Source: an uncultured Alphaproteobacteria bacterium (GTDB lineage: Bacteria > Pseudomonadota > Alphaproteobacteria > Rs-D84). From it: a stretch of 64,000 nucleotides of DNA. This document shows positions 1 to 59,599 of this stretch, in pieces. The stretch lies in NCBI GenBank assembly GCA_947053455.1, contig CAMRSV010000001.1, positions 113,010 through 177,009 of the forward strand. Reading direction: 5' to 3'. The notes below the pieces were generated by a model. That model searched no databases and was not told the origin of the DNA. It saw only the letters and a list, made by a program, of their open reading frames with translations. The first letter of the stretch is position 1. Each line of letters opens with the position of its first letter. The position numbers were made by a program, and so were the translations under genes.

Positions 1-1
1 G

Positions 2-349
2 ACCGACGGCGAAAAATTTTTCCCACTGTCCGTTGATGGAACTATTGTTAACACCCCCGGACAAACACGCGACAACGACGGCATTTTATTCCGTGGCGAC
101 CTGCCCGAAGATGTTTCGCAGATAACAAACGCGGTACAACGCATTGCCGGCGACATAGATTATATGGAATGGATTGAAAACCGACGCTGGAATCTGGTGA
201 CACAGGGCGGTATAACGGTTATGCTGCCGGAAAAGAATGCGGCAGACGCGATTGGCGCATTGATTGTTATGAATACAAACCATGGCATTTTGAACAAACA
301 AATTAGCGTCATTGACATGCGCGACAGTGCACGCATACTAGTAAAATAA
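2..349 (+). CDS. ftsQ: Cell division protein FtsQ, C-terminal part (5' truncated by window edge)
   Basis: Frame 2 is open from the window start to TAA at 347-349. The C-terminal translation ...RWNLVTQGGITVMLPEKNAADAIGALIVMNTNHGILNKQISVIDMRDSARILVK matches the FtsQ beta-domain pattern (RW.L.L.NG..V.LG ... IDLRY). It lies immediately upstream of ftsA, as in the dcw cluster. Confidence 0.6.
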   Translation, partial: TDGEKFFPLSVDGTIVNTPGQTRDNDGILFRGDLPEDVSQITNAVQRIAGDIDYMEWIENRRWNLVTQGGITVMLPEKNAADAIGALIVMNTNHGILNKQISVIDMRDSARILVK

Positions 350-356
350 AAACGAA

Positions 357-2138
357 ATGAACCTGTTTGATTCATCTTTTCTGTGTCTTGACATCGGGAC
401 AAGCGGCGTTCGCGGCATTGCACACCGAATAAAATCGGGTCAGATTGACAAGTCCGCGGTATTTTCAATACAAAGCCCGGACATCGCATTCGCATTGATG
501 TCAGTGGTTGACGAATTGGAACGCCAAATCGGGGTTCATTTTGATTCTGCCTTTGTTACCGGAAATTTTGGAAATGCCGCATTTGACATATCGTTAAAAA
601 GCATACGCTGGTCTGGGGAACATAAAATAACACCCGCCGACATTAAAATGCAGGCTTCACAAATAACACCACCGGACGGTTTTTTCCCCATGCACATAAT
701 ACCGCTGCGATATGATACGCCCGGGGCACGAAACATGGACAGTCCAATTGGCCACACGGATAGACAACTGATGTCTATATTTTCATCAATATCATATGCA
801 CACGCCAGACTGGACAAAATCCAGGCGGCATTGCGCCGCGCGCATATCCAGGCCAACGGATTCTATGACCCGCAATTTTTAATGAACGCCACCATACGTC
901 AAAAAAAGCAGGTTGCAATGTTCATTGATTTTGGCAATGAATTCGTATCTGCATCCATCTGGACGGATCGCGGACCTGTGTGGCTTGAAAAATTTCCAAA
1001 TGGCGGCGGTGAAATCACAACCGCAATTTCAGAAAAAATGCAAATAGACCCGACAGAGGCCACACGCATCAAACACGCCAGCATCAGCATGATACCACGC
1101 GAAATGGATAGGTTCACACCGGCCGATACCGCGTATGAATTTTCACGCGCTGACATTTGCGAAATTGCGGTTCCGCATATCATGAACACAATCGCCGCCA
1201 TACTTGAGGCGGCCAGCAGCGTTCTGGAAAAATACAAACCGTCCCTAATAACAATATGCGGTGGCGGCGCAGAAATCGACGGTATTTCAGACGTAATTGA
1301 AAGCGCCTTTGGAATAAAAGTTGACGTCGCACCGCCGGATGCGGTTGTACGTGCATTGTCAAATTACATATGGAATTGCGAAGAGGCACACCGCCAAGCC
1401 TATTCGGCCAGGCGCGAAAAATTAGCGCGTTATAAAGAAAAAATAACAAAATTATTTCACCGCCGCCGTATCAAAAAACGCACACGTTTCATCCCGATTT
1501 TGCCAAGCACACTGTGCTTTAACATGAAAAGTCCGGTAACATATTCACTGTTTCAGTCGGGCGGAATATCTATGATTCATGTCGATATAATGGATGGCCT
1601 TTATGTTGACCGCATTGCGGGCGGAATTGATGAACTAAAATATATTCGGGCACACACACGTGCACATCTTCATGTCCATTTAATGACCGAAAGCCCGGGT
1701 GTCTGGGCGGCGGACGCGGCGGCGGCGGGCGCGAACACAATAATATTATCGACAAACACATCGGGATTGCGCGCCGCGCTGCGCGCAGTGCGTGCGGGCG
1801 GCCGACGGGCGGGCGTCGCACTTAACCCCGATTCACCTGTTTCATTATTAAAACCGATTTTACGTGATGTGGATGAAATAATGGTGATGACTGTCGCCCC
1901 TGGTGCGGCAGGTCAGGCGTTTCATCCCGAATGCCTACATAAAATATCTGTACTGGCGGCGACACGCAAAAAATATGGATTAAAATTTACAATATCCGTG
2001 GACGGCGGAATAAACGACAAAACGGCGCCCCTATGCTGGGAGGCTGGTGCCGACCTGCTGGTTAGCGGTTCATACCTGGCACGCAGTTCTGATTTTCCAC
2101 TTGCGGTCCAAAGCCTGCTAAAGAAAAGCGGTGATTAA
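357..2138 (+). CDS. FtsA-like actin-fold ATPase (about aa 1-365) fused in-frame to ribulose-phosphate 3-epimerase (about aa 375-593)
   Basis: N-terminal LCLDIGTSGVRG and ITICGGGAEIDGI motifs are typical of FtsA/PilM actin-like ATPases. The C-terminus has the Rpe hallmarks IHVDIMDG, HLHVHLMTESP, MVMTVAPGAAGQAF and ISVDGGIN. It is a single ORF with no stop between the domains. An in-frame ATG at 1524 could also give a stand-alone Rpe of about 204 aa. Confidence 0.6.
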   Translation: MNLFDSSFLCLDIGTSGVRGIAHRIKSGQIDKSAVFSIQSPDIAFALMSVVDELERQIGVHFDSAFVTGNFGNAAFDISLKSIRWSGEHKITPADIKMQASQITPPDGFFPMHIIPLRYDTPGARNMDSPIGHTDRQLMSIFSSISYAHARLDKIQAALRRAHIQANGFYDPQFLMNATIRQKKQVAMFIDFGNEFVSASIWTDRGPVWLEKFPNGGGEITTAISEKMQIDPTEATRIKHASISMIPREMDRFTPADTAYEFSRADICEIAVPHIMNTIAAILEAASSVLEKYKPSLITICGGGAEIDGISDVIESAFGIKVDVAPPDAVVRALSNYIWNCEEAHRQAYSARREKLARYKEKITKLFHRRRIKKRTRFIPILPSTLCFNMKSPVTYSLFQSGGISMIHVDIMDGLYVDRIAGGIDELKYIRAHTRAHLHVHLMTESPGVWAADAAAAGANTIILSTNTSGLRAALRAVRAGGRRAGVALNPDSPVSLLKPILRDVDEIMVMTVAPGAAGQAFHPECLHKISVLAATRKKYGLKFTISVDGGINDKTAPLCWEAGADLLVSGSYLARSSDFPLAVQSLLKKSGD

Positions 2139-2165
2139 AAATCCCGGGTAAACCCGGGATTTTCG
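2136..2165 (+). terminator. Rho-independent terminator after the ftsA-rpe ORF
   Basis: Hairpin ATCCCGGG-taaa-CCCGGGAT followed by TTTCG. Confidence 0.6.
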
Positions 2166-2439
2166 AACAATGCTCTTTTCTGAACTCATCTGAATTCAAA
2201 TGAATCCATAGGGATGTGGGTTCGGGACTATAAAAGCCCTCGATTAGGCAGTGCTCGCATGCGTTATTTATCCGCACGGTTGCATTCGCAACAAAAGCAC
2301 TATGACCCATATTTAATGAAAATATAACAAGTACCTTTTCCCAGGAAACATTGCAACGCTTGTATTTTTTTATTCGTTCTGATAGCATAACAATGAAACC
2401 AAATGGGATATGGTTTTAGGACCGTTAGAAAGTCCTTGA

Positions 2440-2638
2440 TTCGACGGCGCATTGCGCGCTGGTTTTTGCGTCGGTGTTTTTTAACGCCGATGGTTCCTGA
2501 CATTTATCCTGGTCAGGAAGCTGCTGTCATACAACAGGGATTACCCGAAAGCAGCAGGGTCATTTCGAATCATGATTTTCTAAACTTCCTGACCGCCGAT
2601 TCCCATGGCGGTTTCTTCGTTAAACCAAGGAAGATATC
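2440..2638 (+). promoter_or_regulatory. Structured 5' leader (attenuator-like) upstream of the Cys-rich secreted protein gene
   Basis: Three elements: TTCCTGAC (2494-2501), GGTCAGGAAG (2511-2520) and CTTCCTGACC (2585-2594). The middle element can pair with either outer one. The third overlaps the left arm of the hairpin CCGCC-gattcccat-GGCGG + TTTCTTCG (2593-2619), 20 nt before the ATG. Confidence 0.5.
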
Positions 2639-3076
2639 ATGAAAAAAACTGTTACATTTTCGTTATTGTTACTAGGCACCATTTCAACAAACGCATTTGC
2701 TATCGTACGGCCCGATTGCAATGATAATACAACATGTTTTGATATAACAAATGGTCAAAGATGTACTACAGTATGCCCGACCTGTGACCAAGTAACACTT
2801 GGATGCCCATGCTGCATCGAATACGATACCACCGTATCCTGTACCTGCAATTCCGGGTATCATTCGGCGACAAATGCCACATATGGATGCGAATGCAAAA
2901 AAAATTGCGCCGCCGGATATTATGGTGATGGCACAACGTGCACAAAATGTCCAACACCCGGCACAACAACCGGATATGCACAAACCATCACAGATTGCTA
3001 TGTACCACAAAACACATCGGTAACAGATTCAAGCGGCACATATAACTATTCTAGCAATTGTAAGTACAATCTATGA
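2639..3076 (+). CDS. Small secreted Cys-rich protein, paralog family member 1
   Basis: Signal peptide MKKTVTFSLLLLGTISTNAFA and about 20 Cys. Shares C.AGYY..G..C..CP and C-terminal Y.Y[ST].NC.Y motifs with 58647-58913. Confidence 0.7.
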   Translation: MKKTVTFSLLLLGTISTNAFAIVRPDCNDNTTCFDITNGQRCTTVCPTCDQVTLGCPCCIEYDTTVSCTCNSGYHSATNATYGCECKKNCAAGYYGDGTTCTKCPTPGTTTGYAQTITDCYVPQNTSVTDSSGTYNYSSNCKYNL

Positions 3077-3475
3077 CACGATAATTTTTCGACCGTCATT
3101 ATGTGCCGTAATATAAATATGGGTTGTATCGGCCGGTAACATATCCGCCGCAATTTCCGGCCATTCTATCAATGTTATATCATTACGCATCGCGTGGTTA
3201 AGTCCGATTTCAATCAATTCCGACGGGTCTTCGACCCGGTACAGGTCAAAGTGCGATATCCCATCATACGATTGCACGATTGTAAATGTCGGGCTGGGGA
3301 CGACTGTATCAGCCCCGCGCAGCGTTTGAATTATTGTGCGTGCGATTTCGGATTTGCCCATTCCCAAATCACCGTGCAGCGCAACCACCACCGGCGCGGT
3401 CAATCGCCCGGCAAAATCCGCCGCAAACTTACGCGTTTGTTCCAGATTTTCGGTTATTATTTCCATATGCATCAT
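3071..3475 (-). CDS. tsaE: tRNA threonylcarbamoyladenosine biosynthesis protein TsaE (YjeE-family P-loop ATPase)
   Basis: P-loop LHGDLGMGKSEIARTI. Size about 134 aa. Confidence 0.7.
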   Translation of the reverse strand: MMHMEIITENLEQTRKFAADFAGRLTAPVVVALHGDLGMGKSEIARTIIQTLRGADTVVPSPTFTIVQSYDGISHFDLYRVEDPSELIEIGLNHAMRNDITLIEWPEIAADMLPADTTHIYITAHNDGRKIIVS

Positions 3476-3483
3476 ATCGCCTT

Positions 3484-5475
3484 TTATTCTAATAACAGTA
3501 AATCATCCTCTAATTTATGTATCGCGTCACGCAGTTCGGCGGCCGTTTCAAATTCCAAATCCTCGGCCGCACGGCGCATCTTCTTTTGCAGGTCTTTGAT
3601 TTCCTTTCTGATGGAAACCGCATCCATGACACCACCTGATTTGTCGTAAACAAAGCGACGCTTTTTATCAGCCTTTTCTTCCTTGTCGCCAACCTCGGCA
3701 AAGACCGCCTTGGCCACAGTTTTAGGCGTAATGCCGTGCGCCGCGTTGTACGCCATTTGTTTTTCACGACGACGCGCCGTTTCACCCAGCGCAGCGCGCA
3801 TAGAATCAGTTATGCGGTCGGCATACAGTATCACGCGACCATTCGCGTTTCGTGCCGCGCGCCCAATTGTCTGGATAAGCGAACGCGTCGAACGCAGGAA
3901 TCCCTCCTTGTCGGCGTCCATAATCGCAACCAGTTCGCATTCTGGAACATCCAACCCCTCGCGCAGCAAATTAATCCCGACCAAAACGTCAAATTTACCC
4001 AACCTTAAATCACGCAACAATTCTATACGTTCCAGTGTTTCTATATCGCTGTGCAGGTATCTGGCACGCACCCCGTTTTCATTGAAATAATCAGTCAGTT
4101 GCTCGGCCATTTTTTTGGTCAGCGTTGTAACCAGTACGCGCCCTTTTATCCCCTTTACCTCTGCCAGCAGGTCATCAACCTGATGTTCGGTGGGTCTAAC
4201 CTCGCACACAGGGTCGAGCAGACCCGTCGGTCGTATAACCTGTTCAGACACAATCCCGCCCGACTGTTCCAATTCCCACGCGGCGGGCGTTGCCGACACA
4301 AATACGGTTTGTGGACGCAATGCGTCCCATTCCTCAAACGTCAATGGGCGGTTATCAATACACGCCGGCAATCGGAATCCGTATTGTGATAAAGTTTCCT
4401 TGCGCGCGCGGTCACCACGGCTCATTGCGCCGATTTGCGGAACGGTTACATGGCTTTCATCAATAAACAATACGGCGTCACGCGGCAAATATTCAAACAA
4501 TGTCGGTGGCGGCTGTCCCGGGGCGCGACCCGACAAATAACGCGAATAATTTTCAATACCGCGACATGTCCCCGTGGATTCCATCATTTCAATGTCAAAA
4601 TTAACACGTTCGCGCAGACGCTGCTCTTCTATATACTTCATGTTTTCGTGAAAGTATTTTAACCGTTCGTCCAAGTCATCACGGATTTGGCTGATTGCCT
4701 GCAAAATACTGGGCATCGGGGTTGCATAGTGCGTGTTCGGATATATCGCAATTCGATCAAGTTTATGTAGCTTTGCCCCGGTCAGTGTGTCAAATTCCCA
4801 TATATCCTCTATCTCGTCACCAAAGAACGATATTTTCCATGCCCTGTCCAGGGAATGCGACGGGAACACATCCAGCGTATCGCCACGCACACGAAAATCA
4901 CCGCGCTCAAAAGCTGTGTCATTTCGCTTGTACTGAATATCAACCAATGCCCGCATCACATCTTTTTGGCCGATTTTATCCCCAGAATTTAGAACCAATT
5001 TCATGCCCGAATACTGTTCCGGCGAACCCATACCGTAAATTGATGACACAGATGATACGACAACGACATCCTTTTCCTCTAGCATGGCGCGCGTGGCACT
5101 GTGACGCATACGATCCAACTGTTCGTTTATGGACGCATCCTTGTCGATATACGTATCGGTTGTCGGCATGTACGCCTCGGGCTGATAATAATCATAATAT
5201 GATACGAAATATTCGACATGATTGTTTGGAAAGAAATATTTCATTTCCGTATACAACTGCGCCGCCAAAATTTTGTTCGGCGCCATAATCAACGCGGGGC
5301 GCCCCAATTCGGCGATAACGTTCGCCATGGTGAACGTCTTGCCGGATCCGGTCACGCCCAACAACACCTGCGAACGGCGCCCTTCGTTTATCCCAGACAC
5401 CAATTCGGATATAGCCGTGGGCTGATCACCCATGGGTTTGTAATCACTCTGAAGATCAAAGATTTTTTTATTCAC
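3484..5475 (-). CDS. uvrB: Excinuclease ABC subunit B
   Basis: 663 aa. Motifs [10 protein letters not shown], helicase motifs and the C-terminal UvrB/UvrC interaction helix ([19 protein letters not shown]). Confidence 0.9.
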
Positions 5476-5522
5476 AAGGTTTAGTATAATTCATTATAAT
5501 CAAAATACAAGAGGGAGAATAC

Positions 5523-7997
5523 ATGGCATTAAAACCTAGGTATAAGCGCAGAATATTGTGGACGGTTATTTCGGCAATCGGATTGCTGGCCGTGGCGATT
5601 GTGCTGGTGCCTCCCCTTATCACATTAAATTATATGAAACCCAAAATAGAGGCCGCCATCACGGCGCAAACAGGCGTTACGGCAAAAATCAATGGGAACG
5701 TGCATTTTAGTCTGCTGGGGCATGCGACAATCGTTGCACACGATGTTGTGATTCCAATGGGCACAATAAACTCTGCCGTGTTTAGGGTGCCGCTTTCATC
5801 CATACTTGATGCGGGTAACACATCGCTTACGGGTAATATCGTTGTATACGGCGCAAACCTGCACATTGAACGATTGGAACCACAATCATTTAATTATAAT
5901 ATTGAAATAAAAAACTCGCAGATAATGTTTATGGGCAAACCGTATTATATATTAAACGGAACTGTCTTTGATGGAAAGTTCACAGGACTTGTCCGCACAG
6001 ACGACCATAAATATGAAATCGAATTTCAAGGTGACGCATTCCACGTGCGCAACCGCGACAATGCATTGAATCTGACGGGGTATCTGTTTTCAGACGGTGC
6101 GGCACGCGGTAAAATCGCGCTGGCGACCGATGACATAAACCGCTGGTTTGAATTTGATACGCCGCGAATTGACCGCCCGATACAAATGACGGCAAACTTT
6201 GAATGGGACGGTGCAAACGGCGTTAAATTCCAAGACATACATGCAAATTCCTTTACTGGGAACATTGACTTGAACGGCGACGGTTCACGCCGCGTTCAGT
6301 TGGCGTCAAAAAACATGGACTTTGATTTTTCATTCCTGTTAAAACCCAATGACGTTTTATACCGCACCGCGTTTGATTTGGATTTTTATGGCAATATGAA
6401 ATTAGGGTCGAAAAAAATACACCATCTAAAAGTATTAGCAAACGGTGCCCGCGACAAAATACAAATCCGGGAAATCGTTGCGGACGACACGACCATATCT
6501 GGTGGGTACATTGATGCAAACGGTGCCCATAATATTATGATACGCACCCCGTTTGATGGTGTCACGGTCACATGCCTGTTTTCAGGGACGCCGGATAAAT
6601 GGCAATGCGGCGAATTTTCTTATAACCACATAACAGGCCAAATATCTGTTGACGGCGACAAATTTAACATATATGTACAGAGCCCAAAAAACATACCCGG
6701 CGACGATGAAATACGCCGGATGGCACTGCGTTTTGGAAAACATGGGACGGTTGAATTTAAATTTAACGACGCCGCCGGCCGCATGGAAATAAGCGAAAAG
6801 GAAATGTCACGCGAATACACCTTTGCCAGAAATAGGAGCCTTGAATGGTTTGGTGGTGACATAAAATTTATGCCGGAATTTATGCGGCGCGCCACTGGTG
6901 ATTTCACATGGTCTGGCGACAAAATGCATTTCAAGCCGAAATCAGAACAATGGATTCTCACCGTGCAGGGGGGCAAATTTACAATTCGCGGAAAAAACGC
7001 CAAGCAGTGGTTACCAGGTATTGATTTACAGGCACTTAATGATTTGCCATATGAAATATCCGGCACATATGCAGGCGACGCGATTGACAATTTAAACATA
7101 ATAATCGCCGGCCAAGAATTTTCTGGCACCGCAACGGCTGGCGCAATAACATTGAAAACAAACCTGCTGGATATGGATGCATTCACGAACCAATCATTTG
7201 TCGATAACTTTGAAGAACTAGAATTCACGACTATGCATCCGCTGATGATACCGTTTGATGTCGGTACAAATATTTCGATTTCGGCGGCGCACGTTATATA
7301 CAACGGTAATGAATATAGCAACTTTGTATATTCAATGCGCGGAAATACCCAGACATTCTCTATCACAGACGACGCACGGGGCGGAATTTTGATGACTGTG
7401 CGCCGCGACAAAAACAAATACGACATTTCCGCGGCATTGTCGCGTTTCAAGATTGCCGGATTTTTACTAAACAATGTGATGCCACTAAATGTTAGCGACA
7501 CACTGATTACGGGCGAAATTGAAATAACCACGTTCGGCAAAGTCGCGCACGACATACTTTACAATATGGCAGGTGAAATTGACACAACATTTGACGGCGG
7601 AATGATAACGGGTATTGGGGTTGACGGTTTTTATCAGTCTGCCGAAAATATAACAAAACTAAACGCTGAATATGCATTGAGCGCTGCATTGACAAGTGGC
7701 GAAACCGCGTTAAAGAGCATGCGCGTCATCGGTCACTATGAAAACGGCAACTTTGAAACAACGCGCCCACTGGAAATATCAATGCGTCATTCGACAGCCA
7801 CGGGGCAAATGCAAATTATAGATGGCCGCATGTCAGCAAATCTGAAAATCGTAATGCGTGGCGTCGCGCCGGCACCATCTCCAATCGAACTGCAAATAAA
7901 TCCAAATGGGACGCGTAATTATTCGCTGTCCCAGATAATGATGGATTTGGACACGGGATATATGCGTGAATTTGTGAAAACACATGCAAAGTTCTAG
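5523..7997 (+). CDS. AsmA-family outer-membrane biogenesis protein
   Basis: N-terminal membrane anchor followed by the AsmA-like start (MKPKIEAAITAQTGVTAKINGNVHFSLLGHATIVAHDVVI). Large beta-rich periplasmic body, 824 aa. Confidence 0.55.
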   Translation: MALKPRYKRRILWTVISAIGLLAVAIVLVPPLITLNYMKPKIEAAITAQTGVTAKINGNVHFSLLGHATIVAHDVVIPMGTINSAVFRVPLSSILDAGNTSLTGNIVVYGANLHIERLEPQSFNYNIEIKNSQIMFMGKPYYILNGTVFDGKFTGLVRTDDHKYEIEFQGDAFHVRNRDNALNLTGYLFSDGAARGKIALATDDINRWFEFDTPRIDRPIQMTANFEWDGANGVKFQDIHANSFTGNIDLNGDGSRRVQLASKNMDFDFSFLLKPNDVLYRTAFDLDFYGNMKLGSKKIHHLKVLANGARDKIQIREIVADDTTISGGYIDANGAHNIMIRTPFDGVTVTCLFSGTPDKWQCGEFSYNHITGQISVDGDKFNIYVQSPKNIPGDDEIRRMALRFGKHGTVEFKFNDAAGRMEISEKEMSREYTFARNRSLEWFGGDIKFMPEFMRRATGDFTWSGDKMHFKPKSEQWILTVQGGKFTIRGKNAKQWLPGIDLQALNDLPYEISGTYAGDAIDNLNIIIAGQEFSGTATAGAITLKTNLLDMDAFTNQSFVDNFEELEFTTMHPLMIPFDVGTNISISAAHVIYNGNEYSNFVYSMRGNTQTFSITDDARGGILMTVRRDKNKYDISAALSRFKIAGFLLNNVMPLNVSDTLITGEIEITTFGKVAHDILYNMAGEIDTTFDGGMITGIGVDGFYQSAENITKLNAEYALSAALTSGETALKSMRVIGHYENGNFETTRPLEISMRHSTATGQMQIIDGRMSANLKIVMRGVAPAPSPIELQINPNGTRNYSLSQIMMDLDTGYMREFVKTHAKF

Positions 7998-8368
7998 CGT
8001 GATTCATCCTTGATTGCACGTCGGAATGCATCGCGCGATATAGCGCGTCCGCTGGCATCGGCATAATACTTGTTTCGTCCGACAGTAATGCAATGAAATC
8101 CGCCCGCACAGAATTTTAATCCGCGCACCGCGCGCAGCATGGTTTTATCAGGCCCAATAAGGTCGGCCGTCTTTCCAAACAGCAGACGTGAAATTCCGCG
8201 TATAAAGCCGTTCGCTGCATGCGGCGCGTAAAGGACGCCACCACGCTTTACCAAACCATTAACATCATATTTGCCCGCACCCGATGTGATTGTCTGTGTC
8301 TGATACGGCGTCAGATTCATTGTATAGCAAATTTTGTTTATATCAGTTGTCATGCGAAATCCCCCCAT
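7994..8368 (-). CDS. Hypothetical protein (about 120-125 aa from an internal Met; the long ORF is 154 aa)
   Basis: ORF with plausible starts at 8368 (MGGFR) or 8353 (MTTDIN). No family recognised by eye. Confidence 0.3.
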   Translation of the reverse strand: MGGFRMTTDINKICYTMNLTPYQTQTITSGAGKYDVNGLVKRGGVLYAPHAANGFIRGISRLLFGKTADLIGPDKTMLRAVRGLKFCAGGFHCITVGRNKYYADASGRAISRDAFRRAIKDESR

Positions 8369-8474
8369 ACGCTTTTTATAAAAATTATATATGGAAAAAA
8401 TTCTGCTGTAATAGGTATGATTTCCGAATAAAAACGGGGCCGCAAATTGCGGCCCCATGTAACGCGCGCGGGCA

Positions 8475-10229
8475 TTAATTTTTCTTGCGAACAGTGATGT
8501 GCACCTCGCGCAGTTGGGTTTCGGTCACCTCTCGTGGCGCCCCCAGCATCAAATCCTGGCCGCGCTGGTTCGTTGGGAACAGCACAACTTCGCGCAAATT
8601 TGGTTCGGCACGCATGATTTGAACCAAACGGTCGATTCCGAACGCGCATCCACCGTGGGGCGGTGCACCGTACTGGAATGCCGCATACATTCCGCCGAAT
8701 TTTTCACGAACAACCTCTTCGCCGTAACCCGCAATTGCAAAGGCCTTTACCATTGTTTCCGGGTTATAGTTGCGCAGACCCCCACTGCAGATTTCCGCAC
8801 CATTTAACACCATATCAAACTGGTTCGCTTTTATCTTTAATGGGTCGCCATCTAATTCACCCTTGGGCAGTGAAAACGGATTATGTCCGAAATCAATTGC
8901 GCCCGTTTCTTCGTTTAGCTCGTACATTGGGAAATCTTCTATCCAGCAAAGACGGAATTCGGTCGGGTCAATCAGATTCAAATCTTCACCCAGCTTGATA
9001 CGCAGTTTACCCGCAGCCTTGGCCGCGGCATCGGGCGCATCACAAACAAAGAATAAAGATGAATTGTCACCAGATATTTCACGCAGCTTTGCAATACGCG
9101 CCTCGTCCAGTTTTTTGGCGACCGGTCCCTTGGCCTCGTCCGCAAAGACAATGTAGCCAAGTCCACCCAGCCCCAATTCTTTTACCGCATAATCGCCCAG
9201 TTTATCAAACCATGAACGCGGCCGGTCGGCGGAATTGGGCGCCGGTATGGCACGCACAACAGAGCCATTTTCAATTGCGGACGCAAAGATTCCAAAATCC
9301 GACCCGCGGAAAACATCTGTCACATCATGAATGATAATAGGGTTACGCAAATCTGGCTTGTCGCACCCATATTTCAGCATGGCTTCTTCAAATGGTATAT
9401 GCGGGATTTCCGGATGTATTTTTGCATTCGGTACAAATTCGCGAATCATCGCCGGCATCAGTTCGTCGCCAACCGCCTGAATGTCACGCAAATCGACAAA
9501 CGACATTTCCAAATCCAACTGATAAAATTCCAGCAACCGGTCGGCGCGCAAATCTTCGTCACGAAAGCATGGTGCAATCTGGAAATAGCGGTCAAATCCA
9601 GAAATCTGAACCAATTGCTTGAACTGCTGCGGTGCCTGGGGCAATGCATAGAACATGCCATGATGATTGCGGCTGGGGACGATAAAGTCACGCGCACCCT
9701 CCGGGCTAGAGACAGTCAAAATCGGGGTTTGGAATTCGGAAAAGCCCATATCCCACATTTTATCGCGCATGAATTTTATCACGCGGTTGCGGAACAGAAT
9801 GTTGTTGTGAAGACTTTCACGACGCAAATCGATATAACGGTATTTCAAGCGCAAATCTTCGGAAACATTGCCGTCATCACCGAACACCTGGAACGGCAGA
9901 ACATCCGAATTAGTCAATACAGACCAGGATGTGACCTGAACCTCAATCGCGCCGGTGGGTAATTTGTCGTTCACGGCGGACGCGTCGCGGGCAACCACGG
10001 TGCCTGTAACCATTATAACGGATTCGGGGCGGACTTTTTCCAAGGCTTCATTTCCGCCGTCAAATACAATTTGCGTCATGCCATAGTTGTCGCGCAGGTC
10101 AATAAATAACAACGAGCCATGGTCACGCTTTCTATGTACCCAGCCCGACAGTGTAACGGTTTCGCCGACGTTTTTTGCGTTTAATTCACCGCATGTGTGC
10201 GTTCTGTATTTTGATTTAAGTGTTAACAT
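8475..10229 (-). CDS. aspS: Aspartate--tRNA ligase
   Basis: 584 aa. N-terminal OB-fold and class II aaRS motifs (FRDEDLRADR, GGCAFGIDRL). Confidence 0.9.
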   Translation of the reverse strand: MLTLKSKYRTHTCGELNAKNVGETVTLSGWVHRKRDHGSLLFIDLRDNYGMTQIVFDGGNEALEKVRPESVIMVTGTVVARDASAVNDKLPTGAIEVQVTSWSVLTNSDVLPFQVFGDDGNVSEDLRLKYRYIDLRRESLHNNILFRNRVIKFMRDKMWDMGFSEFQTPILTVSSPEGARDFIVPSRNHHGMFYALPQAPQQFKQLVQISGFDRYFQIAPCFRDEDLRADRLLEFYQLDLEMSFVDLRDIQAVGDELMPAMIREFVPNAKIHPEIPHIPFEEAMLKYGCDKPDLRNPIIIHDVTDVFRGSDFGIFASAIENGSVVRAIPAPNSADRPRSWFDKLGDYAVKELGLGGLGYIVFADEAKGPVAKKLDEARIAKLREISGDNSSLFFVCDAPDAAAKAAGKLRIKLGEDLNLIDPTEFRLCWIEDFPMYELNEETGAIDFGHNPFSLPKGELDGDPLKIKANQFDMVLNGAEICSGGLRNYNPETMVKAFAIAGYGEEVVREKFGGMYAAFQYGAPPHGGCAFGIDRLVQIMRAEPNLREVVLFPTNQRGQDLMLGAPREVTETQLREVHITVRKKN

Positions 10230-10471
10230 TTCGGTCCCTTTTTTTATTGCCGGGACGCATCAAATTGCGGCACCGGTATTGTTTATGCACGGGGGCGCAA
10301 AATTTTATTCGCGCGGTGCCACCCCGAATTTATAACTTTTGGTTATGGGTTTTGAACATTCCGCGGTTGTCAGTCGCATCACCACATTCGCGCCCGAAAA
10401 ATCTGTATCGGATTTTAACGCCCGTCCACCCAAAATGCAAGAAATTATTATTTTGTACCACGCACATCAGA

Positions 10472-10506
10472 TTTACCAGATTGCCACGCTACGATCGCAA
10501 TGACAA
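10472..10506. repeat. 35-bp direct repeat copy 1 (TTTACCAGATTGCCACGCTACGATCGCAATGACAA)
   Basis: Exact second copy at 11287-11321. Confidence 0.8.
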
Positions 10507-10592
10507 GTTCGTTATTAAGTTCTTAATCTCTTTACTTTATCATTGCGAGCAAGTGCATCTGCACACAGCGAAGCAATCCAACATATAATAAA

Positions 10593-10868
10593 TTATTTCC
10601 CGCGATACGCATCGGCGTCATCGCCCCAATACCACGCGGGGATGCCGTATGTAAATATAAATATTAAAAATACTGTCGGAAATGGGGCACAGCCGGATTC
10701 TATATCCCGCAATTTTTCGACCGTTATACCAATGTCACGCGCAAACTGTTCCAACGATATTTGTGAATTTTCACGTATACTGCGGAAAAGTTCACCCGGC
10801 GGCATCCCGGTATCTTCTAGTGATACCAGTTTTTTTATCCCCGCCATTATATCGGCATTGTTGGTCAT
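10593..10868 (-). CDS. XRE-family helix-turn-helix transcriptional regulator, with a hydrophobic C-terminal tail
   Basis: Cro/C1-type HTH signature ISLEQFARDIGITVEKLRDIESG. Start chosen at MTNNADIM (ATG 10868). Confidence 0.5.
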   Translation of the reverse strand: MTNNADIMAGIKKLVSLEDTGMPPGELFRSIRENSQISLEQFARDIGITVEKLRDIESGCAPFPTVFLIFIFTYGIPAWYWGDDADAYRGK

Positions 10869-10917
10869 GTTTATACCCCCGTTGTGCAAAAACAAAAACC
10901 ACCGAAAAATTTCAAGT

Positions 10918-11060
10918 GGTTGGAGGTTCACGACTATGTAAGAAATAGTGTATGTGTATTCAATATATTTTCACATACCCTCCAACCTAGGATTGGAGAG
11001 ATAGTTTTTTGTCTTATCTAGACATCTTACGCGGAGTCGTGAAACTCCGTGATGGAATTA
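10918..11060. repeat. Structured repeat unit A (long hairpin GGTTGGAGG...CCTCCAACC plus a second hairpin)
   Basis: Near-duplicate of 11122-11245. Second hairpin is GGAGTcgtgaaACTCC. Confidence 0.6.
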
Positions 11061-11121
11061 CCATCAATGATTATTATAGTATATTAGGGAAAAATATCAA
11101 TAAAAAAACCGCTTTATTGCG

Positions 11122-11245
11122 GTTGGAGGTTCACAACTATCGTAAGAAATAGTGTCGTTTATTCATATATATCACGACCCTCCAACCATGGTTGAAGTTT
11201 CTCTTACGAGGGGTTGTGACACCCCACCGATGGAATACCCTTCGG
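11122..11245. repeat. Structured repeat unit B
   Basis: GGTTGGAGGTTCACAACTATCGTAAGAAATAGTGT...CCTCCAACC. The second hairpin GGGGttgtgacaCCCC differs from unit A but keeps pairing. Confidence 0.6.
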
Positions 11246-11286
11246 CACAATTATTATATCAACACAAAAATCAAATTGCAAATTTA

Positions 11287-11321
11287 TTTACCAGATTGCC
11301 ACGCTACGATCGCAATGACAA
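11287..11321. repeat. 35-bp direct repeat copy 2
   Basis: Identical to 10472-10506. Confidence 0.8.
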
Positions 11322-11370
11322 AGCAATCCAGTTAATAATAAAATTTAATAAAGCGCATAATAATATACAT

Positions 11371-11402
11371 CAAAAAACCCGGTGATTTCCGGGTTTTTAT
11401 TA
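11371..11402 (-). terminator. Rho-independent terminator downstream of infB
   Basis: AACCCGG-tgattt-CCGGGTT with a flanking A/T run. Confidence 0.6.
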
Positions 11403-11418
11403 ACATTATGCCGCCACA

Positions 11419-13797
11419 TTACAACTTGGCGCGAACTTCCTCCACCTCATAACATTCGACGCGGTCACCCTCTTTCAAGTCGTTGTACTTGTCAAACGAC
11501 ATACCGAATTCAACGCCGCCAGATACTTCCTTGACTTCGTTCTTTTCGCGACGCAGTTCACCGATTTTACCATCGTATATAACAACGTTGTTGCGCAACA
11601 GGCGTACAAATGCATCCTTTTTTATCATACCCTCGGTCATGCGGCAACCGGCAACACGCGTGCCCTTGCCCACCGTAAACAATTGGATAACGTCGGCGTA
11701 TCCAATAAAGTTCTCGCGACGTTCCGGCGCCAGTTTTCCAGACAATATTTCCTTTACCTCGTCCGTGATACGGTAGACTACACTGTGGTATCTGATGTCG
11801 ACATTCGCACCGCGTGCCATGTCGCGTACGGCCGCATCTGCACGAACATTAAACGCAATTATAACCGCGTTTGATGCCGACGCCAGGCGTATGTCGCCCT
11901 CTGTAATCTGTCCAACGCCAGATGACAAGATTTCAACCCCAGCTTTGTCCGTATTAATTTCGCGCAGCATGTCGGAAATCGCCTCTACACTGCCCTGAAC
12001 ATCAGCGCGCAAAATTATCGGCAAAATCAGCTTCTTATTTTCGTCACGCTTGGCAAACAGTTCTTCTAGCGATGAACGCTTTACCGCATTTGCCTTATCG
12101 CGCGCCTTTTGTGCGCGGTATGCGGCAACTTCACGGGTTTGTGCCTCGGTCTCCATAACACGCAGGTCGTCACCCGCGGCCGGTACCGCATCAAGGCCAA
12201 GTACCACAACTGGTTGACCCGGTTTTACCGATTTAACGCGTTCGCCCGACGAATTTATAAGCCCGCGCACGCGCCCGAATGTTTCGCCGACAACAAACAC
12301 ATCGCCAATCTTTAGCGTTCCCTGACGCATCAAGACGGTTGCAACCGCGCCCAGCCCCTTTTCCATTTTTGCCTCAACCACGTATGCGATGGCCGGCATT
12401 TCCGGGTCGGCTTTCAAATCCATCATTTCCGCCTGCAGCAAAATGGCCTCTTCCAACTTATCCAGATTGATTTTTTTCGTCGCAGAAATTTCAACGCATT
12501 GAATATCACCACCCATTTCTTCAACCTGAACTTCCTGTTGCAACAGGTCTGTTTTTACGCGTTGGGCGTTTGCCTCTGGCAAATCAATTTTGTTAATCGC
12601 AACAATAAACGGAACGTTCGCGGCGCGAATGTGATTAATCGCCTCAATCGTTTGGGGCATTATGGAATCGTTTGCCGCAACAACCAAGACAACAATGTCC
12701 GCCATTTGGGCACCGCGGGCGCGCATGGCCGTAAATGTTTCGTGCCCCGGTGTGTCCAAGAATGTTATTACGGCGCCAGATTTGGTCTTTACCTCGTAGG
12801 AAGATACATGCTGGGTGATACCGCCTGCCTCTGATGCAACAACGTTTGCATTGCGAAACGCGTCCAATAATGATGTTTTACCATGGTCAACGTGTCCAAC
12901 AACGGTTACAACGGGTGCGCGCGGCTGTAATTTTGTCGCATCCGGTTCACGTTCCAAAATATCCGCATAAGGCTTCATATCAACGCGCTTTACCGTTGCA
13001 CCGAATTCGGTCGCAACCAGTTCGGCCGTATCAGCATCAATCGACTGATTTACAGACGCCATCATGCCCATTTCCATCAATTTCTTGATAACATTTCCGA
13101 CCTTTTCTGCCATTGCCGCCGCCAGGTCTTTAACCGTTATCGTATCTCCCAGTTGAACAACACGTTCAACCTTTTGTGGGGCGGCAAACATTGCGCGCGC
13201 CTTTTCCCGGAAACGTTTAAGTGACGCCTCTGATCTGCGGCGGTTCGCACCACGCAGACCGATTTCGTCATCATCGTCATCACCGCCACCCATTACGATG
13301 TCGTGCAGTGATATTTTTCCGGACTTTTTAAAATCACGATTTTTCCCATTGTTAAACTTTGACGGACGGGCGTCATCCTCTTCGCCGCGAGCCGTGCGTC
13401 TCGTAGCCGGCTGCATATTATTTTGGAATTTCTTTGACACCGGTGCGGGTTCAACCGTATCGGCCGCGGGCGCGCCTTCACGTGCAGCCAACTGCTCTTT
13501 TACCTGTTCGTATTCACGCGTCTCTCTGGCAATTTCCGCTTCACGCGCTAGGCGCTGCGCCTCTTCGGCGGCCTCGCGGGCTTTGCGTTCTTCTTCTCTC
13601 GCGCGGGCGGCCTCTAAAACGGCGCGCAGTTTTTCATCGGCCGCATTTCGCGCCGGGGTGGGTGACGCGGGTTCGTCGCGCAATTCACGCGCGCCGGGTG
13701 CCACAACGCGACGACGGCGTTCAACAAAAACCGCGTCGCCCTTCTTACTTGCAACCTGGTCTATGGTCACAGATTTTCCCAGTGTCAATGTTGCCAT
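11419..13797 (-). CDS. infB: Translation initiation factor IF-2
   Basis: 792 aa with G-domain [20 protein letters not shown] and NKID motifs. Confidence 0.9.
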
Positions 13798-30915: not shown

Positions 30916-30992
<77 letters not shown>

Positions 30993-58934: not shown

Positions 58935-59300
58935 TTAAATTTTGTCCCCAGGATAAAGATAGCTGCATATAAAACATTTATTTATGCCTCCTGGCGTGTG
59001 GTTTGTATAGTAAAAGCATGTTTCTCTTGATGGGGTTGCAGCGCATGTGCCATATGTTTGCGAGTAATATCCCTTATTATCGCTGGTTTCCCGGTCTTTT
59101 ATACGCGTGCAGGTGTTTCCGGTCAATGATAATATCCAGCCAGTTGGGCAAGAGTATGTTGTTTCTGTTTCCAGACTCGGGCAACAATAACCGCTTTCTT
59201 TATTAGCGCAGCATTCTAATTGATCTGGGCATGTTAACGAGGCTTGTGCTGTTGTAATAAATGCAAACGCAAGAATAAAAAACGGTATAAATTTTGTCAT
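58935..59300 (-). CDS. Small secreted Cys-rich protein, divergent family member 3
   Basis: Signal peptide ending AQA. 14 Cys. GYY..x..G.C element. Confidence 0.55.
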   Translation of the reverse strand: MTKFIPFFILAFAFITTAQASLTCPDQLECCANKESGYCCPSLETETTYSCPTGWILSLTGNTCTRIKDRETSDNKGYYSQTYGTCAATPSRETCFYYTNHTPGGINKCFICSYLYPGDKI

Positions 59301-59450
59301 TTTTGGCCTCTTTATTGGTTAAAACAAAACCACCAGGTTTTTTTGGTGGTCAGGAGGCTGAGAACAATTGCACGAATTGCACGATTTATTGGTTATTTAA
59401 TCGCCCTCCTGACCGTGGTCAGGAGTTTGTTTATCGTCGTAATAAAAACG
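59301..59450 (-). promoter_or_regulatory. Structured 5' leader (attenuator-like) of the Cys-rich gene pair
   Basis: GGTCAGGAGG (59348-57), CCTCCTGACC (59405-14) and GGTCAGGAG (59417-25) give alternative pairings. On the mRNA a CCACCA-n8-TGGTGG hairpin plus U-run lies directly adjacent. Architecture is the same as 2440-2638. Confidence 0.5.
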
Positions 59451-59599
59451 GCATGATACGCCACAAATATATTCCGACGTGTGCAATAGGGATTCTCAGG
59501 CCCTGCCGCGGTAACCCACCGCGATATAAAGATTATATGAATTTTCATGAATTGTGTAAAGTCAAAAAGGCCATATTGATAAATATTGCATTACAAACA

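Follow-up and report, generated by a model that had tools for sequence, protein, structure and literature searches.

Tandem promoter-leader-terminator modules ahead of an XRE-type gene in an uncultured alphaproteobacterium: a candidate family of conditional transcription attenuators, with REP-like repeats at its borders

The 64,000-nucleotide stretch analysed here (hereafter the window; contig CAMRSV010000001.1, assembly GCA_947053455.1, an uncultured alphaproteobacterium of order Rs-D84) holds, between infB and aspS, a small gene with an XRE-type helix-turn-helix (HTH) signature and two homologous structured units, bracketed by two copies of a 36-nt repeat and all lying on the minus strand. 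We propose, with a probability of about 0.6, that the locus is made of two tandem, self-contained promoter-leader-terminator modules followed by the XRE-type gene that they control, and that such modules form a family of conditional transcription attenuators. Promoters, terminators, two sets of helices and the association with genes were all computed here. Candidatus Enterousia, of the same order, comprises uncultured gut Alphaproteobacteria with reduced genomes under about 1 Mb (PMC12306168).

Each unit reads, on the minus strand, from a sigma-70-like promoter through a structured RNA to an intrinsic terminator. The elements that matter for the argument are the following.

11253..11281, minus strand: unit A promoter (TTGCAA, 17-nt spacer, TATAAT; TG precedes the -10 hexamer)
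11101..11252, minus strand: leader RNA of unit A (covariance model score 146 bits)
11197-11190, 11187-11179 and 11129-11121, minus strand: regions 1, 2 (GGUUGGAGG) and 3 (CCUCCAACC) of unit A
11124-11107 plus U-tract, minus strand: intrinsic terminator of unit A, found by scan
11073..11100, minus strand: unit B promoter (TTGATA, 16-nt spacer, TATAAT; 11/12 matches)
10890..11075, minus strand: leader RNA of unit B (covariance model score 135 bits)
10998-10990, 10987-10979 and 10926-10918, minus strand: regions 1, 2 and 3 of unit B
10921-10899 plus U-tract, minus strand: terminator of unit B, read from the sequence and the predicted fold
10593..10868, minus strand: open reading frame (ORF) under the tandem leaders, for the 91-residue XRE-type HTH protein, whose C-terminal part includes a hydrophobic stretch
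59322..59531, minus strand: a third, diverged leader member (53 bits, E about 5e-12)

Units A and B are homologous, with a period of 203-204 nt and 74% column identity. This limited identity, together with the compensatory nature of the differences, indicates that they are old and under selection. A first-pass annotation, made from the window alone, had described them as two structured units of about 140 nt, which is right as to number and homology and short as to length, since they measure approximately 150 nt (unit A) and 185 nt (unit B) from promoter to terminator. It had also seen in each a long hairpin, GGTTGGAGG...CCTCCAACC, and a second, smaller one. Both are there: the long hairpin accounts for four exact sites in all, every one at this locus, and the small hairpin reads GGAGT..ACTCC in one unit and GGGG..CCCC in the other. 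The compensatory change noticed at the time is genuine and recurs across the family, where three of the four pairs of this helix (helix 2) change on both sides. The predicted folds are far more stable than those of shuffled sequences (-54.7 kcal/mol, z = -5.0, for unit A; -61.0 kcal/mol, z = -6.6, for unit B). Unit B ends 21 nt ahead of the ribosome-binding site (GGGGG) and ATG of the HTH gene. Downstream of the third copy is found an ORF (59300..58935) for a 121-residue, cysteine-rich secreted protein.

Comparison of family members supports two complete folds. Fold 1, the terminator state, comprises a 5' hairpin (P1), the helices P2 to P5 and the terminator. The closing helix, P2, is long-range (GGGGU-GUCACAAC with GUUGUGA-ACCUCC is one instance); P3, a second long-range helix, pairs the strand that follows the small 5' hairpin with the loop of another hairpin, P6, described below; P4 joins regions 1 and 2, and the hairpin P5 carries the conserved loop AAUAUAUUGAAUAA. 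Among 17 diverse members, 88.9% of the cells of the alignment are paired as this fold demands, and 28 of its 41 pairs change on both sides. None of 500 shuffles reaches the observed pairing, a control that leaves phylogeny out; controls in which the partner strand is slid, which do account for phylogeny, are clearly lower, with 35-45% pairing. The terminator helix is 83.6% paired (5/8 pairs change on both sides), and P3, which exists in 98 different sequence versions, has a mean length of 7.8 bp as against 5.2 bp in shuffles.

Fold 2, the anti-terminator state, is built from a helix between regions 2 and 3, a local GGGG...CCCC hairpin, P5 and P6 (ACUAU/AUAGU). The long hairpin of the first-pass annotation is the region 2:3 helix, and its second hairpin is the local GGGG...CCCC one. 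With alignments fitted to fold 1, not to fold 2, 91.3% of the cells are paired in the 17 sequences (19/28 pairs change on both sides) and 93.6% in 118 distinct sequences (13/18 pairs). The central pair of P6 is A-U in 59 of the latter and U-A in 50, while the region 2:3 helix is 97% paired, five of its nine pairs changing on both sides. Regions 1, 2 and 3 covary as a set: they read CUUCAACC/GGUUGGAGG/CCUCCAACC in unit A, CUCCUGC/GGCAGGAG/CUCCUGCC in locus L048, and CUCCUGACC/GGUCAGGAGG/CCUCCUGACC in the third window copy, all three having changed jointly relative to units A and B. The 3' nucleotides of region 3 (AACC/GCC) also belong to the terminator stem, so that the 2:3 helix and the terminator are mutually exclusive. 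P3 and P6 exclude each other as well. Fold 1 has the minimum free energy and usually exceeds fold 2 in stability by 7-20 kcal/mol, and this preference fits a switch that is off by default. The conserved nucleotides (region 2, region 3, the P5 loop and the P6 stem) fall mostly within the anti-terminator junction, and sequence varies freely in those helices that belong to the terminator fold alone. This distribution suggests that the anti-terminator form is the one recognised.

The conserved segments admit other uses. An internal promoter (TTGAAT in the P5 loop, followed by NATAGT) was discarded upon sequence inspection: the spacing is 19-20 nt, and the transcript would still terminate. We also tested attenuation by a leader peptide, in which region 2 (GGAGG) would be a ribosome-binding site and a UUG or AUG in the P5 loop a start codon. 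Such a codon does lie about 12 nt after GGAGG in 102 of 135 members, and in 77% of those 102 an ORF of 5-25 codons ends shortly before region 3; the remaining 23% have no stop codon before the end of the RNA, neither frame nor stop position is conserved, similarity between the peptides is limited to the nucleotides of the conserved loop, and the putative ribosome-binding site is base-paired in both folds. The case for this mechanism is weak, and we regard it as highly improbable.

How widespread are these leaders? The 91-residue protein could not be used to transfer gene context between genomes, since a search of 5.8 billion proteins retrieved as homologue a single sequence, 99% identical; AspRS was used instead, and 80 species-level loci (Candidatus Enterousia/Alphaproteobacteria, from animal and human guts) were fetched with it. 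BLAST found unit-like sequences at other positions in six species. A covariance model, R1, built from eight sequences, recognises 17 solid members among the window and the 80 loci. A degenerate pattern scan gathered at least 120 metagenome contigs and three viral contigs, and R1 counts 152 further members on metagenome and viral contigs. The first-pass annotation had asked whether the hairpin units exist elsewhere; they do, as the third window copy and as about 165 further members across Enterousia loci and gut metagenomes. Its other question, whether Rfam knows them, receives a negative answer: in Rfam 15 no family matches the units, even at E up to 10 (window 9500-12500), and, among five loci scanned, with E up to 1 allowed, no match overlies the L012 or L048 members. 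No leader-like DNA was found in annotated phage and plasmid collections, and the literature yielded no description of structured RNAs in Enterousia or Rs-D84, nor of gene regulation there.

The units recur in arrays of two to four complete copies before one gene, most of them keeping their own promoter. Indeed, a promoter matching at least 9 of 12 positions stands at the fixed place in 63% of the units, inner array units included, as against 2.5% of random sites. Examples of such arrays are these.

L101, 151-1002
L118, 8425-9383
L181, 123-901
L174, 7986-8591
L164, 8683-9109

What follows a unit could be assessed in the 152 that have no other unit behind them. In 133 of them comes a same-strand ORF, at a median of 22 nt from the terminator; 12 others run off the end of the contig, and 7 have no detected ORF. 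About half of the downstream products carry a signal peptide (by a crude test), and 24 of the 133 are small HTH-like proteins of 45-115 residues, from at least four subfamilies with different recognition helices. A Pfam search of 107 non-redundant downstream products matched, among others, XRE-type HTH proteins, Listeria-Bacteroides repeat surface proteins, Glycosyltransferase family 8, Beta-flower proteins, superinfection-immunity proteins, ABC exporters, a PLD-type nuclease, DNA methylases (EcoRI-type, C5 and HsdM), the YadA anchor, an outer-membrane beta-barrel protein and TrbC/VirB2 pilin. The leader is also used at a prophage edge: positions 1-13200 of the IMG/VR contig L209 hold a P2-like prophage tail module (sheath, tube, tape measure, gpD), after which come an AAA ATPase, a PLD nuclease, an EcoRI-type methylase and then a leader unit before the gene of a 316-residue secreted protein.

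It is here that a stand-alone role has to be weighed. The units might be trans-acting small RNAs (sRNAs), tandem paralogues whose conserved loop or C-rich CCUCC would pair with target mRNAs, the downstream genes being incidental; the first-pass annotation had indeed spoken of a pair of sRNA genes. Much of what we describe would suit this reading: a promoter and a strong terminator in every unit, a terminated form that dominates thermodynamically, recurrent arrays of two to four units, a conserved P5 loop predicted to be single-stranded, and the seven units behind which no ORF was detected. The description of the units as self-contained RNA genes of a conserved family thus stands. Their position speaks otherwise, with an ORF, ribosome-binding site included, so close behind the terminator in 133 of 152 cases that there is no room for another promoter. 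Moreover, covariation maintains a helix that excludes the terminator, which a pure sRNA would not need, and no convincing complementary target for the P5 loop was found within the window. The proximity of the ORF and the overlap between anti-terminator and terminator lead us to prefer leaders acting in cis, and we hold free-standing sRNAs to be unlikely, though by no means far-fetched. By analogy with riboswitch-derived sRNAs, both roles could coexist.

If the units do act in cis, the following sequence of events would account for their make-up. The nascent RNA would form P4, P5, P3 and P2, in the order in which the strands emerge, and would thus build a four-way junction. Region 3 would be left free to enter the intrinsic terminator, and an RNA of 150-190 nt would be released. 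In the alternative course, region 2 would pair with region 3 and take away the 5' arm of the terminator; the 2:3 helix would close a three-way junction with P5 and the new hairpin P6 (ACUAU/AUAGU), the 5' GGGG would close on the local CCCC, and RNA polymerase would read through into the gene. A putative effector, whether a protein, a small molecule or second messenger, or another RNA, would tip the balance to the anti-terminator, by stabilising the 2:3/P5/P6 junction or by blocking region 1. The set of downstream genes argues against a biosynthetic metabolite in this role, and could be reconciled with an ion, with a second messenger or with a dedicated RNA-binding protein.

Several considerations weigh against attenuation as we propose it. 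Most metagenome members were gathered with a pattern drawn on conserved segments, which inflates the apparent conservation there (the conserved loop and the helices are likewise present in the 24 members outside that pattern). It was a model of the terminator fold to which the alignments were fitted. That fold is predicted to be so stable that the anti-terminator may form rarely, unless it meets a strong stabiliser. Units with their own promoter, stacked in arrays of up to four, are unusual for riboswitches and fit stand-alone sRNA genes too. The downstream genes are heterogeneous, and neither an effector candidate nor a metabolite emerges from their context. Finally, we infer from sequence that the leaders are transcribed, terminate and are read through, and the same holds for termination as the default state and for switching by a signal.

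A number of known systems resemble the units in part. Like terminator/anti-terminator/anti-anti-terminator attenuators, such as the PyrR-dependent pyr leaders, they combine a 5' leader with an intrinsic terminator; as in these attenuators and in riboswitch platforms, an alternative helix takes the 5' arm of the terminator and a third element (here region 1) sequesters the anti-terminator strand. Unlike them, the units refold the whole RNA (P2/P2alt, P3/P6, 1:2/2:3) instead of a short platform, bring their own promoters, stack in arrays, and precede genes that do not make up a metabolic pathway. The class I cyclic di-GMP (GEMM) riboswitches offer an analogy, and an analogy only: a genome may hold many of them too, some in tandem, and the genes that follow them code for secreted, surface or uncharacterised products, but the Rfam search revealed no match of the units to them in sequence or structure, and no sign of cyclic-dinucleotide synthesis in this clade came up in the analysis. 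The JUMPstart/ops-RfaH system, LoaP leaders and EAR share with our family the placing of a common leader before genes for surface structures, conjugation pili or horizontally acquired functions. In those systems a short signal in DNA or RNA brings about processive action on terminators further downstream, whereas each unit here carries its own terminator and a covarying anti-terminator. Pairs such as AbcR1/AbcR2 and PrrF1/PrrF2 consist of homologous RNA genes side by side, every one provided with a promoter and a terminator of its own; the units differ from these in being followed directly by a promoterless ORF and in conserving an anti-terminator fold.

More tentatively, and with less than even confidence, we would suggest that the family is a new class of signal-responsive anti-termination switch, answering to a ligand such as a second messenger or ion, or to a dedicated RNA-binding anti-terminator, and commanding, in the reduced-genome order Rs-D84, a genome-wide regulon of some ten operons or more, with surface, secreted and regulatory genes as well as horizontally acquired ones; the stacking of promoter-attenuator modules would then be a previously undescribed architecture. 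Were this true, a single leader would be a global switch for the surface and the accessory genome of a probable symbiont or parasite, recurring as it does before adhesin-like surface proteins, small XRE regulators, DNA methylases, a conjugation pilin and prophage-edge genes. RNA biology would gain an orphan switch for which the evidence of two complete alternative folds is unusually clear. With about 170 examples and hundreds of compensatory changes, the question of the effector can be addressed in vitro, with no need to culture the organism.

We now turn to the repeat that borders the locus, which we shall call E. The 35-bp direct repeats reported by the first-pass annotation at 10472 and 11287 are exact (10472-10506 and 11287-11321; matches from shuffles, 0) and extend in fact to 36 nt. 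The window holds three copies of the element.

10471..10506, minus strand: REP-like element E, copy 1 of the 36-nt repeat
10535..10592, minus strand: REP-like element E, in the orientation opposite to both 36-mers (TGGATTGCTTCGC...TCGCAATGATAAAG)
11286..11342, minus strand: collapsed E doublet, made of copy 2 of the repeat (11286-11321) and of part of an inverted partner (11321-11342)

Similarity runs on past copy 2, since 11321-11342 matches 10571-10592 at 82%, and the side of copy 1 therefore holds an extra segment of 64 nt (10507-10570) relative to that of copy 2. Within this segment lies an inverted third copy of the repeat core, TCATTGCGA, at 10540-10548. Positions 11321-11342 correspond to the first 10 nt or so, with the AT-rich flank, of the inverted partner. 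The window thus displays a full REPIN-like inverted doublet at 10471-10580 (copy 1 and the 10535-10592 element) and a collapsed one, the latter immediately upstream of the unit A promoter. Copy 1 lies 30 nt upstream of the -35 hexamer of the aspS promoter. As a pattern, GATTGC..N6-34..CGCAATGA with conserved flanks (ctgGATTGC ... TCGCAATGAcaaagg), E occurs 32 times in 1.76 Mb of sampled contigs, which answers the earlier suggestion that the repeat be looked for elsewhere. The copies that we inspected are intergenic, and often form inverted doublets or alternately inverted clusters after terminators (the window at 10471-10580, L019, L092, L139, L158, L164 and L200). They are not scattered evenly with respect to the leaders: E stands beside 8 of 24 leader-HTH modules (those of the window, L029, L092/L138, L139, L158, L164 and L200) as against 1 of 109 other leaders (Fisher p = 3e-6). 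Preferential recombination or insertion at repeats, or else a shared history as small cassettes, might possibly explain this enrichment.

To judge from these features, the 36-mer appears to be an extragenic palindrome of the kind known as REP, BIME or REPIN (repetitive extragenic palindromic sequences, their interspersed mosaics and their inverted doublets), placed outside the leader RNA and clustering around leader-HTH modules. With those elements it shares an imperfect palindrome of 25-45 nt, extragenic location, multiple copies, and an arrangement in inverted doublets or alternating clusters, typically after terminators. It departs from them in being a low-copy family, with 3 copies in the 64-kb window, specifically enriched at leader-HTH modules. 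A cognate transposase of the RAYT type (Y1 HUH) was looked for by tblastn in 1.8 Mb of sampled DNA and gave no match, a weak null result in view of the approximate E. coli YafM-like query. We found no description of the repeat core in the literature.

Could the 36-mer be an operator of the XRE-type protein, set upstream of the promoters of unit A and aspS? It contains inverted half-sites (ATTGC...GCAAT), one copy immediately precedes the -35 hexamer of unit A, another precedes that of aspS by 30 nt, and the element co-occurs with HTH modules. Across the family, however, the distance from repeat to promoter runs from about 3 to 60 nt or more, some modules have downstream repeats only, and the alternately inverted clusters are typical of REP and BIME; this variable geometry, together with HTH proteins belonging to at least four subfamilies with different recognition helices, argues against such a role, and we deem it very improbable. 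An attachment site is rejected as well. The first-pass annotation had proposed to compare the 35-mer with the 3' end of a tRNA or tmRNA, and it equals none: the best local alignment score against the tRNAs tested is at most 8, and ARAGORN places no tRNA or tmRNA near the 36-mer, the sole tRNA in the window being tRNA-Met at 30916-30992. The lesson for annotation is that a direct repeat flanking a gene can be a REP-like element instead of an attachment site.

There remains the idea that the block as a whole is mobile. It had been described as a miniature mobile or integrative remnant, and may be rephrased as a small cassette, with the 36-mers either serving as its recombination sites or marking where a repeat already present received a Campbell-type insertion. 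The closest relative speaks in favour: in the sister species (L009; IF2 97% and AspRS 98% identical) the infB-aspS gap is only 311 nt, with neither HTH gene nor units, and contains one degenerate repeat-like sequence, ATTGCT..TTGTC..CGTGGCAATATGATAAT. The block of about 0.9 kb is then an insertion in the present lineage or, with equal fit, a deletion between direct repeats in the sister lineage. Leader-HTH modules do occur in differing genomic contexts across species, once at the prophage edge, and E is enriched beside them as given above. A strain of the same species, furthermore, appears to have lost exactly one unit through recombination between A and B: its metagenome-assembled genome (GCA_964017585.1 at NCBI; L002, 9653-10001) carries a single hybrid in place of window 10890-11252, in which a clean deletion of 203 nt, with its crossover in the shared segment GTGAACCTCC, has fused the 5' part of unit A with the terminator of unit B. 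Unequal recombination, making copy number vary naturally, or collapse of the tandem repeat at assembly would each give this hybrid. Against a cassette stand the lack of any integrase or transposase within or beside the block (the lone ORF between the 36-nt copies is that of the HTH protein, and infB and aspS flank them), a repeat that resembles no tRNA or tmRNA, E copies that also cluster away from modules and at variable distances from promoters, and two units that have diverged to 74% identity with compensatory differences. What is left of the earlier description is the absence of the block in the sister; we consider a mobile cassette rather unlikely, yet deserving of attention.

Two side observations bear on repeated or cassette-like elements in these genomes. 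L011 (1706-1807) and L075 (4048-4137) give sub-threshold Rfam matches to sRNA-Xcc1, an integron-cassette-associated RNA, with 38 and 32 bits for a gathering score of 53, and attC-like structures could thus be present in the clade. In L029 (7753-8760, minus strand), ahead of the leader promoter, there are several G+C-rich repeated hairpin-like segments, such as ATTCCCACCGCCGTT..GGCGGGGG and GGGCCCCGC..GCGGGG.

The gene under the tandem leaders was correctly located between the repeats by the first-pass annotation, and its product gives a weak but consistent match to the Pfam models HTH_3, HTH_19 and HTH_31 over residues 26-66 (E = 1.7e-5 to 3e-3), with an HTH score of 25 bits, just below the curated cut-offs of 27-30. 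Its exact sequence occurs on nine read contigs of the same species, at the same locus (eight among the matches listed), and a distant similarity links the protein to several other HTH proteins encoded behind leaders (E about 1e-5, the database searched being small). The genes on either side confirm that the block sits in the infB-aspS intergenic space.

13797..11419, minus strand: infB
10229..8475, minus strand: aspS

The expectation that rbfA and truB should stand there does not apply, as adjacency of infB and aspS is confined, among the species examined, to this one and its sister. For the remaining 78, a search of the 6 kb that precede aspS, or of whatever stretch the contig left where a locus was shorter, did not find infB, and the loci checked have tRNA-Thr upstream of aspS in its place.

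Separate from the leader-HTH module, aspS has a T-box-like leader of its own (about 10405-10230, minus strand), conserved in 78 loci.

10440-10435 and 10417-10412, minus strand: aspS promoter (TTGCAT and TAAAAT)
10371-10369, minus strand: specifier GAC of the aspS leader
10325-10310, minus strand: T-box core of the aspS leader, GGGGUGGCACCGCGCG

The invariant core GGGUGGCACCGCG is present in 78 of 79 aspS leaders. An anti-terminator-like helix has a 7-nt bulge, UGGCACC, and a short Stem I is formed of covarying lower and upper helices with a 9-nt loop, ACU-GAC-AAC, in whose codon position most species have GAC (Asp) and one clade has AAC (Asn). A hairpin immediately ahead of the start codon sequesters the ribosome-binding site and covaries from species to species (GUCCC/GGGAC, UCGCC/GGCGA, ACACC/GGUGU). 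The aspS leader thus shares with T-box leaders (RF00230) the core, the bulged helix and the codon-bearing Stem I loop, but its Stem I is very short and it appears to act on the ribosome-binding site. The Rfam T-box model gives it 21-26 bits, for a gathering score of 93. Units A and B, by contrast, are without any T-box signature (no RF00230 match, motif absent). A literature search found no report of T-box leaders in Alphaproteobacteria. A placing of the 36-mer inside the T-box Stem I was dismissed as an artefact of forced global alignment in the weak Rfam match: in the comparative alignment the real Stem I spans about 10385-10350, and the aspS promoter lies downstream of the 36-mer.

Finally, the terminator hairpin of infB (AAAAACCCGGAAATCACCGGGTTTTTT, 11370-11395) has runs of A and T on both sides and could terminate in both directions; in the sister species L009 an unrelated terminator occupies its position.

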